Origin: an uncultured Pseudomonadota bacterium
GTDB taxonomy: Bacteria > Pseudomonadota > Gammaproteobacteria > Burkholderiales > Burkholderiaceae_C
Assembly (NCBI GenBank): GCA_945952465.1
Contig: CAMFIB010000005.1
Coordinates: 20,820 to 84,819, forward strand
DNA: 64,000 bases
Direction: 5' to 3'
Positions within the stretch are counted from its first letter, which is position 1. Every line of letters begins with the position of its first letter. Under the pieces are notes generated by a model. That model searched no databases and was not told where the DNA came from. It saw only the letters and a program-made list of their open reading frames with translations. A program made the translations under genes and the position numbers. This document shows, in pieces, positions 3,860 to 16,141 of this stretch.

Positions 3860-5284
3860 ATGACCGCCACCGCCCAGCTCGACCCGATCGCCGCGATCGC
3901 CACCGCGCCCGGCCGTGGCGCGGTTGGCATCGTGCGGGTGTCGGGGCCGTCGCTGGGCCCGCTGGTGCGCGCGCTGTGCGGCCGCGAGCTGAAGCCGCGC
4001 GAGGCCACCTACGGCCCGCTGCGCGACGCCGCCGGCGGCGCGATCGACCACGGGCTGGCGCTGTGGTTCCCGGCCCCGCATTCCTACACCGGCGAAGACG
4101 TGCTGGAGCTGCAGGCGCACGGCGGGCCTGTGGTGCTGCAACTGCTGCTGGCGCGCTGCATCGAGGCCGCCGCCGAGCGGGATGCCGCGACCGGCGCCCC
4201 ACGGCTGCCGCGCCTGCGGCTCGCGCAGCCCGGCGAGTTCACGCAGCGCGCCTTTCTGAACGACAAGATCGACCTCGCGCAGGCCGAGGCGGTGGCCGAC
4301 CTGATCGACGCCAGCACCGAGGCGGCCGCCCGCAGTGCGGCCCGCTCGCTGTCGGGCGCGTTCTCGGACGAGGTGCACCGGCTGCGCGACGCGCTGGTCC
4401 ACCTCCGCATGCTGGTCGAGGCCACGCTGGATTTTCCGGAAGAGGAAATCGACTTTCTGCAGAAGGCCGACGCGCAAGGCCAGCTCGACGCGCTGCGCGC
4501 GCAGGTGGCCACGGTGCTGGCCCGCACGCGGCAGGGCGCACTGCTGCGCGAAGGCATCACGGTGGTCATCGCCGGCCAGCCCAACGCCGGCAAGAGCTCG
4601 CTGCTGAACGCGCTGGCGGGGGCCGAGCTGGCCATCGTCACGCCCATCCCCGGCACCACCCGCGACAAGGTCGCGCAGACCATCCAGATCGACGGCGTGC
4701 CGCTGCACGTGATCGACACCGCCGGCCTGCGCGACGACACGGCCGACGCGGTGGAGCGCATCGGCATCGAACGCGCCTGGGCCGAGATCGAGCGGGCCGA
4801 CGCGGTGCTGTTTCTGCGTGACCTCACGCGCATGGATGCTCCTGAATCAATAGCATCCGATCAAGCCATCGCGCTGACTCTGGCCGAAAAACTATCTCAA
4901 ACCGTGCCGGTGATCTCGCTGTGGAACAAGGCCGACGCCACCGCCGCGCGGCCGGTCGGGGCCAACGGTGAGGCGGCGCTCGTGCTGTCCGCCAAGACCG
5001 GCGAAGGCCTGGACGCACTGCGCCGCCGCATGCTGGACATCGCCGGCTGGCAGGCCGCGCCCGAGGGCCTCTACCTGGCCCGCGAACGCCACGTGCAGGC
5101 GCTGCGCGCGGTGGCCGACCACCTGGACCTGGCCAACGCCCACCTCGCCGCGCGTGCCCAATCGCTGGACCTGCTGGCCGAGGAACTGAGGCTGGCCCAG
5201 CAGGCGCTGGCCGCGATCACCGGCGAGTTCACGTCCGACGATTTGCTGGGCGTCATCTTCTCGTCGTTCTGCATCGGCAAATAG
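3860..5284 (+). CDS. mnmE: tRNA modification GTPase MnmE (TrmE)
   Basis: 474 aa with G-domain motifs [20 protein letters not shown] and NKAD, plus the C-terminal FCIGK signature. Confidence 0.95.
4837..4903 (-). repeat. Copy D of the ~65-nt dispersed repeat family, in frame inside mnmE
   Basis: This patch is ~49% GC inside a ~70% GC gene. Its reverse complement ends gctattgattcaggagca, versus gctactgaatcaggagca in copy C, and it shares the cggcc..agtcagcgc core. Confidence 0.6.
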
Positions 5285-11018: not shown

Positions 11019-11495
11019 TCAGTAACCGCCGCCGCCACCGCCGTAGCCGCCGCCACCGCTGCGGCCACCACCGCCGCCGCCGCGCGGGCCAGCGCCGTAG
11101 GGGCTGCGGAAGCCGCCGTCACCGCCGCTGCGGCCACCGCCGCCGCCACCACCGTAGCCGCCGCCACCGCTGCGGCCACCGCCGCCACCGTAGCCGCCAC
11201 CACCACCGCCGCCGTAGCCGCCGCCACCGCTGCGCGGGGGACGCTCTTCCATCGGACGGGCTTCATTGACGACGACGCTGCGGCCGCCCAACGACTGGCC
11301 ATTCATGCCACCGATGGCAGCTTGCGCTTCAGCGTCGCTGCCCATTTCCACAAAACCGAAGCCCTTGGAGCGACCGGTGTCGCGCTCCATCATGACCTTG
11401 GCGCTCGTGACGGCGCCGAATTGCGAGAACGATTGCTCGAGATCGTTGTCGCGCACAGAGTACGGCAGGTTGCCGACGTACAGTTTCTTGCCCAT
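11019..11495 (-). CDS. RNA-binding protein: RRM domain plus glycine-rich C-terminal tail
   Basis: An internal ATG at 11495 gives MGKKLYVGNLPYSVRDNDLEQSFSQFGAV...KGFGFVEM, which contains the RNP2 and RNP1 motifs. The tail consists of GGGYGGGGGG/RSGGGG repeats. Confidence 0.9.
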   Translation of the reverse strand: MGKKLYVGNLPYSVRDNDLEQSFSQFGAVTSAKVMMERDTGRSKGFGFVEMGSDAEAQAAIGGMNGQSLGGRSVVVNEARPMEERPPRSGGGGYGGGGGGGYGGGGGRSGGGGYGGGGGGGRSGGDGGFRSPYGAGPRGGGGGGRSGGGGYGGGGGGY

Positions 11496-11685
11496 GAACA
11501 GGGACTCCCAATAAACACGTTTTTCTTTAGCGATGGAGTCTCGAAAGCACGACAAAAACCAAATCTGTAGCGCGAGCTTGACCAATCACCGGACCGGCAT
11601 GCCTGTCTCTGTCTCTTGACAGACATACAAAACCATTATGCGCCAGAAGAATGGAAAAGGGGAAGTGTTCCGATGATCGGCGGGC

Positions 11686-11710
11686 GCCTGTCCCCAAAAC
11701 AGGCATTTTT
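11686..11710 (+). terminator. Terminator-like hairpin with a T-tract only on the plus strand (orphan)
   Basis: gcctgt (11686-11691) pairs with acaggc (11699-11704), followed by attttt. It lies 9 nt beyond the anti-sigma stop, but there the U-tract is on the wrong strand. Confidence 0.35.
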
Positions 11711-11718
11711 CCGGGTTT

Positions 11719-11940
11719 TCAACCGGCGGGCGGCCGCCCGTCTGCTTCGTCGGACGCTGCGGCATTTCGCCAATTGCGCATCGCGTGCCGCAATGTGAAA
11801 ACCTGTCGTTCGAACGTGGAGCACGCCCCGCAGGCCAGCAGGTGAAGCCGCAGCGCGACCCGGTCGGTCGTCCGCAGCGCCCGGTCTTCGCGGGCGATCA
11901 TCAGCGTGGCCGCTTCGCGGCAGGTCCGGCGCAACAGCAT
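11719..11940 (-). CDS. Small soluble zinc-finger (zf-HC2/ZAS-type) anti-sigma factor
   Basis: 73 aa with H33-x3-C37-x2-C40 (HLLACGAC) plus Cys7. No hydrophobic segment is visible. It starts 10 nt downstream of the ECF sigma gene. Confidence 0.75.
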   Translation of the reverse strand: MLLRRTCREAATLMIAREDRALRTTDRVALRLHLLACGACSTFERQVFTLRHAMRNWRNAAASDEADGRPPAG

Positions 11941-11950
11941 GTGAGTGGGT

Positions 11951-12520
11951 TCAGGTCCGGCTCGTCGAGGGCGCCTGGAACCAGCTCAGCCCCAGGCATT
12001 CGCGCAGCCTCAGCCGCGCGCGGTGCAGCTGCACATAGAGGTTGGTCGAGGTGATCTGCAGCTCCTTACAGATCTCCTCGCACGACAGCTCCAGCCATTC
12101 GCGCATGAGGAACACGCGGCCCATGGTGGCCGGCAGTTTTTCGGTGCAGGCCTCCAGCACCATGAAGAACTGGCGCGAGCTGAGGTCTTGTTCGGGGTTG
12201 CCCCAGTCGGCCGGCGGCGAGGCGAAATGGCCGTCGGCGGTGAAGACCAGCGCGTCGAATCCGTCGTCATGGCCTTCGTCCAGCGCGTCGACGTTGACTT
12301 CGCGGGCGCGCTGGCGCAGCACGTCCACCACCTTGTGCTTCAGGATGCCCACCAGCCAGGTCTTGAGCTGCGAGCGCTGCTCGAAGGCCTGCGGCCTAGC
12401 GAGCGCGGCGACGATGGTTTCCGAGACCACGTCTTCGGCCCAGGCGTCGTTGCGCAGCTGCAGCCGCGCGAAGCGCAGCAGGTAGCCGCGCTGCTCGGCG
12501 AGGTCATCGGTGAAAGCCAT
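11951..12520 (-). CDS. ECF-family RNA polymerase sigma-70 factor
   Basis: 189 aa. The region 2-like segment is RFARLQLRNDAWAEDVVSETIV...WLVGILKHKVVD. The region 4 HTH is MREWLELSCEEICKELQITSTNLYVQLHRARLRLRE. Confidence 0.9.
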   Translation of the reverse strand: MAFTDDLAEQRGYLLRFARLQLRNDAWAEDVVSETIVAALARPQAFEQRSQLKTWLVGILKHKVVDVLRQRAREVNVDALDEGHDDGFDALVFTADGHFASPPADWGNPEQDLSSRQFFMVLEACTEKLPATMGRVFLMREWLELSCEEICKELQITSTNLYVQLHRARLRLRECLGLSWFQAPSTSRT

Positions 12521-12593
12521 GGGTGGATCGTAGCCGAGCGGCCGTTACGATCGTGTGTTTAGCCCACACCGCTTCACCGCAGGGAACACCGCC

Positions 12594-12878
12594 ATGGGTT
12601 CGTCCGACGTCGTCGCCACTGCGGCGGCCGCCTTGATCGCCGCGCTGGCCGCCGCACCCGCGGCCGCGCAAAGCCAGGAAAAATGCTTCGGCGTGGCCAA
12701 GGCCGGCCAGAACGACTGCTCCAGCCTCACCAACAGCCACGCCTGCTCCGGCCTGGCCACACGCGACCGTGACGCGGCCGAATGGGTGTACGTGGCCAAG
12801 GGCACCTGCGCCAAGCTCAAGGGCCTGACCGAGGCGCAGGCCCGCGCCAAGCTCAAGCTGCCGCCACCCAAGGCCTGA
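12594..12878 (+). CDS. bufA: DUF2282-family secreted Cys-containing peptide (bufferin-type RiPP precursor)
   Basis: 94 aa from ATG 12594 (AGGGA lies 9-13 nt upstream; an alternative GTG is at 12555). An Ala-rich signal peptide ends in AAA|QS. The core [16 protein letters not shown]...HACSG...KGTCAKLKG has four Cys (31, 42, 51, 72). It sits directly upstream of the DUF692 and DUF2063 genes. Confidence 0.8.
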
Positions 12879-12882
12879 GCCC

Positions 12883-13752
12883 GTGCTGCCGGAGCCACCG
12901 CCCGCTGTTGGCATTGGCTGGCGCGCCGAGCACGAGGCGGCGCTGCTGGCCGGGCGGCCGGCCATCGATTTCATCGAGGTCCATTCCGAAAATTTCTTCG
13001 GTGAAGGCGGTGCCGCGCTGGCCACGCTGCTGGCCGCGCGCGCCCATTACCCGGTGAGCCTGCACGGCGTGGGGCTTGGCCTCGGGTCGGCCGCCGGACT
13101 GGACGACGCGCATCTGGCGCGGCTGGCGGCGCTGGTCGAGCGCACGGAGCCGATGCTGGTCAGCGACCACGCGGCGTTCGCCCGTGCGCCGCACGCCGGT
13201 GGCGTCACCCACGCGGCCGACCTGCTGCCGCTGCCCTTCAACCGCGCCGCGCTCGACGTGCTCGGCGCCAACGTCTGCCGCGTGCAGGACCGGCTGAAGC
13301 GGCCCATCCTCGTCGAGAACCTGACTGCCTATCTGGCGTGGCGCTCGAGCGAGATGGACGAGCCCGATTTCCTGGCCACGCTGGCCCGCCGCACCGGCTG
13401 CCGGCTGCTGCTCGACGTCAACAACCTCTACGTGAATGCGCTGAACGCGCGCCGCGCCGGCCGCCGTGGTGACCCGCTGCTGCACGCGATCGACTGGATC
13501 GACCGGCTGCCGCGCGGCGTGGTCGGCGAGGTCCATGTGGCCGGCCATGCGGCCGACGGCGACTGCGTCGTCGACGACCACGGCAGCGCGGTGTGCGACG
13601 ACGTCTGGTCGCTGCACCGCCGCACGCTGCGGCGCTTCGGGCCGGTGCCCACGCTGGTCGAATGGGACCGCGCGCTGCCGCCGCTGGCCGTGCTGGCCGG
13701 TGAAGCGCTGCGGGCGCGCGAGGCGGCGGTGCCGGCAGAGGCGCTGGCGTGA
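12883..13752 (+). CDS. bufB: DUF692 / MNIO (multinuclear non-heme iron-dependent oxidase, MbnB-like)
   Basis: 289 aa with a GTG start 4 nt after the bufA stop. [31 protein letters not shown]...[12 protein letters not shown]...VSDHAAF is typical of UPF0276/DUF692 TIM-barrel proteins. Confidence 0.85.
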
Positions 13753-14555
13753 GCGACACCGCCGCGCTGGCCGCCGAACAGGCCGCGCTGGTCCGCGCGC
13801 TGTGGCTGCCGTCGCTCGACGACGCTGCGCCCGCCATCGCCGGCCTGGTCCATTCGGTGCTGGCTGGCGGGCCGCACCACCTGCACACCGGCCTGTCGGT
13901 GTACCGCGCCAACGGGCTGGGGCTGGCGGCCCGCGTGCTGCCCGCCGCCTACCCGGTGCTGGCGCGGCTGATCGGCGCCGACAGCATGGCCGCGCTGGCA
14001 AAAGACCTGTGGCGGCAGCACCCGCCGACCGACGGCGACATCGGCCGCTGGGGCGGCGCGTTGCCGGCTTTCGTGCGCTCCTCGGCCGCGTTGGCCGACG
14101 TTCCGTATCTGGCCGACGTGGCCGAGGCCGAATGGGCGCTGCACCGCGCGGCCACCGCCGCCGACGCGGTGCGCGACGACGCCTCTTTCGGCCTGCTCGC
14201 CAGCGAGCCGCCCGACACGCTCACGCTGCGGCTCGGCGCCGGCGTGGCGCTGCTGCGCAGCCCGTGGCCGGTCGCCAGCCTGATCGCCGCGCACCAGGCG
14301 AACGACGACGCCGCACTCGCGCGCATCGCCGAAGCGCCACAACCCGAACACACGCTGGTCTGGCGGCACGGCTTTCAGCCCCGTTGCCGCGCGGCAAGCG
14401 ACGCAGAAGCCGCGTTGGTCGAGGCCTTGCTGCACGGCGACAACCTGGATGCCGCGCTCGCGCTCGCGCAGGGGCTGGCGTTCAAGGCCTGGCTGCTGGA
14501 GGCGGTGCGCAGCGGGCTGGTGGTGGCCGCCGACCGCCGACGGGCAGCGGATTAA
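13749..14555 (+). CDS. bufC: DUF2063-family partner protein of MNIO enzymes
   Basis: 268 aa. A GTGA overlap with the DUF692 stop suggests translational coupling. The DUF692-DUF2063 pairing is conserved, and the N-terminus QAALVRALW is typical of the family. Confidence 0.7.
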
Positions 14556-15007
14556 AAGTCCGCTGCTGCGGCCAGCGCCCGCCGCACCGTGTCGGCGTCG
14601 AAACCCCGGCCCAGCAGGAAGCGCATCTGCTTGGCCTTGTCGGCCGGGGTGCCCGGTGGTTGGTCACCGAACTTCTTCAGGCGCACGGCGCGGGCCCGCT
14701 CCAGCTCGCTGCCCCGCAATGCCGCCAGGCTGCGGGCAATGGCATCTGCCGCCAGGCCGCGCTGCTGCAGCTCCTGCTGCAGCCGGCGCTGGCCGAGCTG
14801 GCCGGCGCGCCGGTGCACCACGCTGTCGAGCACCCGCTGCTCGTCGATGAAGCCCTTGGCCTGCAGCGCGTCCAGTGCGGCGGCCAGTTCGCCCGGCTGC
14901 TGTTCGTGGCTGGCGAGCTTGCGCTCCAGCTCGGCGCGCGAATGCTCGCGCCCGGCCAGCAGCCGCAAGGCGCGGGACTTTAGGGACGGGGGCGATGCAG
15001 CCGGCAA
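14552..15007 (-). CDS. recX: Recombination regulator RecX
   Basis: 151 aa with a TTG start. LRLLAGREHSRAELERKL and three helical repeats are present. It lies immediately downstream of recA. Confidence 0.9.
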   Translation of the reverse strand: MPAASPPSLKSRALRLLAGREHSRAELERKLASHEQQPGELAAALDALQAKGFIDEQRVLDSVVHRRAGQLGQRRLQQELQQRGLAADAIARSLAALRGSELERARAVRLKKFGDQPPGTPADKAKQMRFLLGRGFDADTVRRALAAAADF

Positions 15008-15009
15008 GA

Positions 15010-15077
15010 CGCTACCAAAACAGAAGCAAACTATTCAGCAGTGGCGCTGACTACAAGGCCTTTTGGCATTGAAACCC
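15010..15077 (-). repeat. Copy E of the dispersed repeat family (recA-recX spacer)
   Basis: Its reverse complement gggtttcaatgccaaaaggccttgtagtcagcgccactgctgaatagtttgcttc aligns with copies C and F. The tcagcgccactgctga core matches tcagcaccaatgctga in F. Confidence 0.6.
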
Positions 15078-15082
15078 GCCGA

Positions 15083-16141
<1,059 letters not shown>

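Follow-up and report, generated by a model that had tools for sequence, protein, structure and literature searches.

Does a compact operon beside a sigma factor of the extracytoplasmic function (ECF) type in an uncultured Burkholderiaceae_C bacterium encode a copper-binding bufferin, and does that sigma factor still control it? The locus lies in a 64,000-nt stretch of contig CAMFIB010000005.1 (assembly GCA_945952465.1), hereafter the window, whose first nucleotide is position 1 of the coordinates given for it. Three plus-strand genes, bufA, bufB and bufC, diverge there from genes encoding the sigma factor and an anti-sigma factor. An original prediction, made from the nucleotide sequence, placed the triad among the bufferin/gig-type operons for peptides that are made on the ribosome and modified after translation (RiPPs), in which the modifying enzyme is a multinuclear non-haem iron oxidase (MNIO), and implied control by the adjacent sigma factor. 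Hidden Markov models, the predicted fold of BufC, synteny in at least 80 relatives and the literature agree on the operon type. Our best explanation of the whole, to which we assign a probability of about 0.8, is a reduced Buf1-type bufABC operon that keeps an ancestral regulator, an ECF sigma factor with a zinc-binding anti-sigma factor of the ZAS type, and has probably been uncoupled from it.

The family is known from the Caulobacter bufferins (2024), an MNIO landscape survey (2025) and a paper that renames the class captophorins (2026, PMC13097082). The DUF2282 precursors of Caulobacter have Sec signal peptides, and BufB together with BufC converts their central cysteines to 5-thiooxazoles (PMC11626156). 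The outer cysteines form a disulfide, for a net change of -10 Da, and the resulting peptide is a ligand of Cu(I)/Cu(II) that confers protection from copper; a thiooxazole UV absorbance is described for Buf1 (PMC11626156). The Cu affinity of Buf1 is in the femtomolar range. DoxX is dispensable in C. vibrioides, where a doxX deletion had no phenotype and the cluster belongs to the SigF/NrsF regulon (PMC11626156). The survey counted thousands of Buf1 clusters with a core of precursor, MNIO, DUF2063 protein and DoxX, and already noted sigma factor and NrsF genes in them (PMC12452194). DUF2282 peptides show little conservation around their cysteines, and their metal specificity was left open (PMC13097082). 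The gig operon of Cupriavidus stands opposite rpoQ-rsqA, genes for an ECF16 sigma factor and a membrane anti-sigma factor, and a dependence of gig on RpoQ could not be demonstrated (PMC13492112). The novelty of the system was overstated at first, as mining and characterisation of the family began in 2024 and homologues already bear the names 'BufA1 family periplasmic bufferin-type metallophore' and 'HvfC/BufC family peptide modification chaperone' in public annotation.

An intact operon of the Buf1 type

The five open reading frames of the locus were found in both the ORF list and the raw sequence of the window. bufA (12594-12878, plus strand; ATG at 12594, stop codon at 12876-12878) encodes a Buf1-type (DUF2282/BufA1) precursor of 94 aa. 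After a gap of 4 nt follows bufB (12883-13752, plus strand; GTG start), encoding a 289-aa MNIO of the DUF692 family, and the GTG start of bufC at 13749 (13749-14555, plus strand; 268 aa, DUF2063) overlaps the bufB stop codon in a GTGA. The predicted triad, gap and overlap were thus reproduced. At least 23 independent contigs encode proteins identical to these, and three loci of the same layout (L081, L082 and L086) share the 73-nt spacer ahead of bufA; with this agreement, the arrangement is no assembly artefact. The samples ERZ12289979, SRR18030335 and SRR26049927 carry the source organism.

The three family searches proposed with the original prediction were all significant. BufA matches PF10048 (DUF2282/BufA1) with 77.2 bits (cut-off 22.4; E = 9.3e-22), BufB matches PF05114 (MbnB_TglH_ChrH) with 303.6 bits (E = 1.3e-90) and BufC matches PF09836 (DUF2063) with 46.8 bits (cut-off 27.2; E = 3.6e-12). 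Among NCBIfam families, MNIO_BufB is the top match of BufB, and HvfB, ApyH, MbnB and ChrH score far lower (HvfB 193.7 bits against a cut-off of 360, MbnB 35.7 bits against 325). The closest solved structure to BufB is the DUF692 structure 3BWW (E = 4.8e-30). BufC found no sequence hits in the PDB, even with a profile of 34 sequences. Its AlphaFold2 model, built with 52 homologues, has a predicted local distance difference test score (pLDDT) of 92.1 and combines an N-terminal helical domain with a C-terminal alpha/beta domain, in agreement with a DUF2063 partner whose C-terminal domain is RRE-like. The only significant PDB fold matches of this model in Foldseek were TglI (8HI7_A; E = 9e-5, template modelling (TM) score 0.57), the partner of the MNIO TglH, and NGO1945 (3DEE; TM scores 0.50/0.64), the founding DUF2063 structure. 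That the locus is a Buf1-type bufferin, or 'captophorin', cluster is in our view highly probable. The cluster is genuine and intact but reduced, and the kind of system it represents is already established.

To gauge intactness, we scored alignment columns with a conservation of at least 95% in relatives. Relatives came from a scan of one genome per species, which yielded 80 loci with BufB proteins 55-68% identical to that of the window, all Comamonadaceae-like (Polaromonas, Rhodoferax, Hydrogenophaga and Ramlibacter; L001-L080); L083 is grouped with them here. Of the conserved columns, 101/106 are retained in BufB, 35/35 in BufC, 72/74 in the sigma factor and 13/13 in the anti-sigma factor. 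The ratio of nonsynonymous to synonymous change (pN/pS) was computed against L086, a 97%-identical relative. Counts of nonsynonymous/synonymous differences were 0/2 in bufA, 2/7 in bufB and 10/12 in bufC, giving ratios of 0, 0.11 and 0.33 from small counts; the ratios of the sigma factor and anti-sigma factor genes were at most 0.08. For bufA, bufB and bufC these small counts are consistent with purifying selection.

Could the operon nevertheless be a silent remnant, unexpressed and decaying? Its promoter motif, leader hairpin, thioredoxin gene and doxX, all described below for relatives, are gone. No sigma-70-like promoter was detected either: a scan of 11500-15100 returned 0 sites, a result that is uninformative in a genome of 69% GC. 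Yet bufABC contains no frameshifts or premature stops, few conserved residues have been lost, each of the three genes shows more synonymous than nonsynonymous changes relative to the 97%-identical locus (again in small counts), and the Shine-Dalgarno sequence and the tight coupling of the genes are preserved. We consider decay very improbable; in our reading of these sequences, bufABC is probably still made in this organism.

A diverged precursor

The predicted signal peptide of BufA spans residues 1-25 (12594-12668) and leaves a core of 69 aa starting QSQEKC. Its four cysteines, C31, C42, C51 and C72, stand in the contexts EKC-F, NDC-S, HAC-S and GTC-A, so that precursor length, core and cysteine contexts are as originally described. 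Their codons lie on the plus strand at 12684-12686 (CysI), 12717-12719 (CysII), 12744-12746 (CysIII) and 12807-12809 (CysIV). All four cysteine columns are invariant in two alignments of 13 and 40 homologues, as are GQNDC, H49 and EW.YVAKGTC. Every residue invariant in the wider family is kept in BufA, which retains K30, C31, G33, AGQNDC (37-42), H49, C51, G53, W64, YVA (66-68), G70, C72 and G77.

By analogy with Caulobacter, BufC would present BufA to BufB in the cytoplasm, and BufB would oxidise C42 and C51 to 5-thiooxazoles. The peptide would then be exported by Sec and cleaved after A25 (AAA), C31 and C72 would form a disulfide, and the folded product of ~7 kDa would sequester Cu(I)/Cu(II) in the periplasm (PMC11626156).

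Several observations weigh against a bufferin of the usual kind. The match of BufB to MNIO_BufB (306.5 bits) falls 3.5 bits below the equivalog cut-off of 310. BufA departs from its relatives at nine of 28 positions with a conservation of at least 95% (K28Q, I34V, A43S, G47N, S50A, A52S, Q54L, K56T and K65V), including residues flanking CysII and CysIII. Such a diverged core could signify a difference in substrate recognition or metal specificity. The n-region of the signal peptide, MGSSD (12594-12608), has no Lys or Arg and includes an Asp, against a near-invariant Arg4 in relatives; at least 90% of BufA homologues start MNQR. This n-region may mean reduced or altered export. Finally, the AlphaFold2 model of BufA was unusable (mean pLDDT 55), and only its order of strands and helices is compatible with the published Buf1 model. 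A sequence search of BufA against the PDB gave no hits.

These features bear on a rival in which the peptide is modified but has another chemistry or role, for instance binding a different metal (Au, Ag, Zn or Cd), redox buffering or retention in the cytoplasm. In its favour stand the n-region without positive charge and the divergence of the core: in a set of ~5.8 billion proteins, the most similar BufA after this one reaches 62-64% identity, and the nine substitutions put Ser after both central cysteines. The open metal specificity of DUF2282 peptides (PMC13097082) and the debate in the literature between thiooxazole and oxazolone-thioamide assignments point the same way. Against it stand the full set of wider-family invariant residues in BufA, a predicted signal peptide whose hydrophobic core (residues 7-21, with a mean Kyte-Doolittle value of 2.2) and AAA|Q cleavage site (AxA motif) are intact, and the placement of BufB closest to the BufB equivalog model among MNIO subfamilies. 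We judge the rival improbable and keep to the prediction of a periplasmic, copper-binding bufferin.

The unusual n-region also raises the question of the start codon. The ATG at 12594 is backed by the N-terminal alignment and by a Shine-Dalgarno-like AGGGA 8 nt ahead of it, at the homologous position. An alternative GTG start at 12555 would give a 107-aa form with an Arg in the n-region. We rejected it, since homologues align from the ATG and the Shine-Dalgarno sequence, which reads CAGGAG in relatives and CAGGGA here, stands at the homologous distance; the 94-aa form was also the choice of gene callers on independent contigs.

A sigma factor with a soluble anti-sigma factor

Upstream of bufA, across a 73-nt intergenic spacer (12521-12593), the sigma factor gene runs in the opposite direction (11951-12520, minus strand; 189 aa), with its start codon ending at 12520; the divergent pair and its distance to the operon are as had been described. 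The protein matches Sigma70_r2 and Sigma70_r4_2 and exceeds the cut-off of NCBIfam PRK12520 (287.7 bits; cut-off 255); it also matches TIGR02943 with 234 bits. Its PDB matches are generic ECF sigma factors. Membership in ECF18 was considered but found no support in the literature searched, and PRK12520 and TIGR02943 are the only families to which the protein could be assigned.

The anti-sigma factor gene (11719-11940, minus strand) encodes a 73-aa protein that exceeds the cut-off of NCBIfam antisigmaE (55.7 bits; cut-off 50) and matches zf-HC2 in Pfam with E = 8e-5. Its motif C7-x25-H33-x3-C37-x2-C40 is invariant in 57/57 orthologues, and no hydrophobic or transmembrane segment was found, the highest 19-aa Kyte-Doolittle mean being 0.86. 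Because the Cys/His motif is invariant and a hydrophobic segment is lacking, we assign this protein, on sequence features, as a soluble, cytoplasmic ZAS-type anti-sigma factor. The likeness to gig and buf1 operons therefore holds for the gene triad beside an ECF sigma/anti-sigma pair but stops at the regulator, as the anti-sigma factors there are membrane proteins of the DUF1109/NrsF type (PMC3511200, PMC13492112). Identity to orthologues in relatives is ~58-74% for the sigma factor and ~42-78% for the anti-sigma factor.

Accessory genes and the order of losses

Most relatives keep the same locus order: a gene for an RNA-binding protein with an RNA recognition motif (RRM), the anti-sigma factor and the sigma factor on one strand, and bufA, bufB and bufC diverging from them (63/80). 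Two accessory genes are frequent. A gene for a secreted AhpC/TSA-Redoxin protein (TlpA-like, with a CxxC motif; Pfam-confirmed) stands between the sigma factor gene and bufA in 38 of 63 loci, for example at L001:3938-4444, L002:3848-4420 and L083:1223-1759. In many cases it has a separate copy of the promoter motif described below. This TlpA-like protein may handle the CysI-CysIV disulfide or the redox state of copper. doxX follows directly after bufC in 61/70 loci (Pfam-confirmed). Where both flanks are available (55 loci), 36 have both accessory genes, 11 have doxX only and 8 have neither; 8 Rhodoferax-like loci that lack both accessory genes still carry the promoter motif.

The window has neither gene. 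As predicted earlier, doxX is absent: tblastn found no homologue in the 64 kb (best E = 0.48). Nor does the 64-kb window contain thioredoxin homologues, or paralogues of BufA, BufB or BufC elsewhere. The operon ends where doxX stands in relatives, with the bufC stop codon (14553-14555) overlapping that of recX, and recA comes next; the stop-to-stop junction with recX had been noted correctly.

Comparison with the nearest other lineage, L083 (BufC 57% identical), suggests how this layout arose. There, a promoter, the thioredoxin gene, bufA, bufB and bufC follow the divergent sigma factor gene, and recX comes directly after, without doxX. The only plus-strand motif copy of L083 precedes the thioredoxin gene, and bufA, starting 52 nt after that gene, has no promoter of its own. 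L001 has doxX in the interval from bufC to recX, and the recX-recA neighbours follow in L001, L014 and L083 too. Because L083 already lacks doxX yet has the thioredoxin gene, and L001 has doxX, doxX was likely lost first in the window's lineage and the thioredoxin gene second. Deletion of the thioredoxin gene together with its promoter from an L083-like layout would give the arrangement of the window. The lineage would thus have lost doxX, then the thioredoxin gene, the promoter or promoters and the leader.

A candidate promoter, kept inside the sigma factor gene

Upstream of bufA, 68/75 relatives carry the motif TGTAAGRA-N15(16)-GACYAA, ending ~70-95 nt before the start codon; a copy in one relative reads TGTAAGAA-N15-GACTAA. 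A second copy precedes the thioredoxin gene in 25 loci, and a further copy lies on the opposite strand inside the sigma factor gene in 56 loci, ~100 nt before the anti-sigma start. Instances include L031:1106-1134, L069:1315-1343, and L002:3788-3816 and 4478-4506. As the motif marks exactly the genes around the sigma/anti-sigma pair, we infer that it is the best candidate for the cognate promoter of the sigma factor. It does not match the consensus sequences that PMC13492112 gives for ECF18 and ECF16.

The intragenic copy spans the region 4.2 codons C-K-E-L...T-(P/S)-T-N and is held at synonymous sites: of 58 genes, 55 encode the Cys by TGT, against 21% TGT in bufABC, 46 encode the Glu by GAA, and in 56 the codon contributing the G of GAC has CG as its last two letters. 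Its position suggests that it transcribes the anti-sigma gene alone, giving negative feedback. On the basis of these comparative data, the ECF sigma factor and its soluble ZAS partner would be the ancestral regulator of the cluster in Comamonadaceae. Across the family, a cytoplasmic ZAS switch would free the sigma factor under thiol-reactive or metal stress, and the freed sigma factor would activate the thioredoxin gene, bufABC(D) and, as negative feedback, the anti-sigma factor.

The window keeps one part of this arrangement. Within the 3' part of its sigma factor gene, the copy TGTAAGGA-N15-GACCAA (12042-12070, minus strand, read from 12070 to 12042) is intact, with a two-box position weight matrix (PWM) score of 26.6 against a median of 27.3 for the instances. 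It is the only copy in the 64 kb, where the next best site scores 12.2. For reference, all 83 real instances score at least 18.4 and the median of random windows is -7.6. Upstream of bufA the motif is absent, the best plus-strand score in 12200-12600 being -7.1. The sigmaF consensus of Caulobacter, GTAACC-N16-CGAA, does not occur in the 73-nt spacer either.

Sigma control of bufABC is doubtful because the window keeps the intragenic motif copy only. Of the original suggestion, the proximity of the regulatory pair to the operon stands; the step from there to control is weakened, as the motif found in 68/75 relatives is missing before this bufA. The competing explanation is that bufABC still answers to the adjacent sigma factor, either through a diverged promoter in the spacer or sigma factor gene or indirectly, via another member of the regulon. 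It draws on the intact sigma and anti-sigma factors beside the operon (with the column retention and pN/pS values given above), on the conserved divergent arrangement and on the intragenic copy, which points to an unchanged presumed sigma specificity. Against it stand the plus-strand score in 12200-12600, which sits at the level of random windows, and L083, whose only promoter precedes the very thioredoxin gene that is deleted here. The link between motif and sigma factor, we note as a further point on the side of retained control, is drawn from co-occurrence only, and absence of the motif is no proof against sigma-dependent transcription. Taken together, retained control appears possible though doubtful, and we lean, by a little over even odds, towards loss of direct sigma control of bufABC in this genome.

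The spacer itself is identical in L081 and differs by one base in L086. In its middle lies a perfect inverted repeat, GATCGTA (12526-12532)-N13-TACGATC (12546-12552), carried by the same-lineage loci L081 and L086 and absent from L001-L080. Possible origins are a new regulator site, a scar left by a deletion, or chance. We did not adopt it as a regulator site: relatives lack it, and about 1 in 10 such spacers would hold one by chance (a rough estimate).

Between the motif and bufA, relatives usually carry a 5'-leader stem, (C/U)AACCAG...CUGGUU(G), with a variable loop of ~20-45 nt (e.g. L042:1131-1225, L043:4560-4646 and L062:4579-4666). Two of its base pairs covary among 38 sequences (AU 21/GC 8/CG 4 and GC 27/CG 3/AU 2). 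A UCAACC further downstream offers a possible alternative pairing with GGUUGA. This hairpin is absent from 12521-12593 in the window, and an Rfam search of the hairpin and its region returned no family. The sole Rfam match among the nine sources scanned was a manganese (yybP-ykoY) riboswitch in a Rhodoferax relative (L056:8965-9171; 64.6 bits), ~2.3 kb downstream of bufC.

Flanking genes

Directly downstream of the anti-sigma factor gene lies a gene for a glycine-rich RRM-domain RNA-binding protein (11019-11495, minus strand), syntenic in most relatives with 79-95% identity. Its transcript could be shared with the sigma/anti-sigma pair or start at the intragenic promoter. On the other side, recX (14552-15007, minus strand) forms the convergent downstream boundary; its product has RecX_HTH1/2/3 domains and scores above the cut-off of NCBIfam RecX. 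The recX start is ambiguous: the longest ORF, with a TTG start (14552-15007), gives 151 aa, and callers on identical contigs chose 138 aa (14552-14968). A terminator-like hairpin (14577-14561, minus strand) lies in the 3' end of recX, at the junction with bufC.

Significance

Taken alone, the locus is one more uncharacterised bufferin in a family of thousands and would hold no surprise for specialists in RiPPs or metal homeostasis. Its modest value is comparative. It provides a natural minimal bufABC, confirming in a second lineage that DoxX and thioredoxin are accessory, and the comparison brings out a promoter, in part intragenic, that is a candidate for recognition by the ZAS-linked ECF sigma factor of Comamonadaceae. 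The more interesting material belongs to the family and lies mostly outside the window: the candidate ECF promoter, the TlpA-like gene and the covarying leader hairpin. Searched by terms, the main text of the MNIO landscape survey mentions neither thioredoxin or redoxin genes such as the TlpA-like one nor an ECF promoter with an intragenic copy or a leader hairpin.

We tentatively sketch a more far-reaching scenario, which we regard as rather unlikely. One or two deletions, taking away the promoter, the leader RNA, a periplasmic thioredoxin gene and doxX, would have cut the bufferin operon from the ECF/ZAS circuit. The precursor would then have diverged, gaining Ser after both heterocycle-forming cysteines and losing the Arg of its signal peptide, leaving a constitutive or differently regulated metallophore with a possibly altered metal preference or localisation. 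The scenario adds an undescribed regulatory design in Comamonadaceae, with a ZAS sensor, a three-promoter regulon, a promoter for the anti-sigma factor alone embedded in the region-4 codons of the sigma factor gene, and a covarying leader hairpin. If the uncoupling is true, the locus would be a natural experiment on a stress-induced metallophore operon after loss of its dedicated regulator.

Comparison with known systems

The Comamonadaceae relatives share with the window an orthologous sigma/anti-sigma pair, the bufABC order and the RRM flank; the window differs from them in lacking doxX, the thioredoxin gene, the bufA promoter motif and the leader hairpin. Caulobacter vibrioides buf1ABCD (CCNA_03363-03366) is alike in its four-Cys DUF2282 precursor, whose counterpart in the window has a putative N-terminus of the Sec type, in the order of precursor, MNIO and DUF2063 protein, and in its adjoining ECF sigma factor. 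It has bufD/doxX, which is missing here, and its anti-sigma factor is a six-transmembrane DUF1109 NrsF, whereas that of the window is a 73-aa soluble ZAS protein. The promoter motifs differ as well: the sigmaF site GTAACC-N16-CGAA (PMC3511200) there contrasts with TGTAAGRA-N15-GACYAA in the Comamonadaceae family, which is missing before the bufA of the window.

Cupriavidus metallidurans gigPABT is also a betaproteobacterial four-Cys DUF2282/DUF692/DUF2063 operon divergent from an ECF sigma/anti-sigma pair. It combines RpoQ (ECF16), a membrane-bound anti-sigma factor and gigT (DoxX), in contrast to the PRK12520/TIGR02943 sigma factor and ZAS partner of the window. HvfABC/oxazolin, fontiphorin, gonophorin (EGKCG-repeat captophorins) and MbnABC likewise use an MNIO and a partner to oxidise peptide cysteines to a copper-binding heterocycle, but the precursors of those captophorins and of methanobactin belong to another class, being repeat peptides or the leader-dependent MbnA. 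With the ZAS anti-sigma factors RsrA and the N-domain of ChrR, the 73-aa protein has in common the H-x3-C-x2-C zinc motif, an upstream Cys and a cytoplasmic location. The shared motif and location imply thiol- or metal-reactive sensing. It matches the RsrA model weakly (16.6 bits; cut-off 62.5) and has no cupin or other sensor domain.

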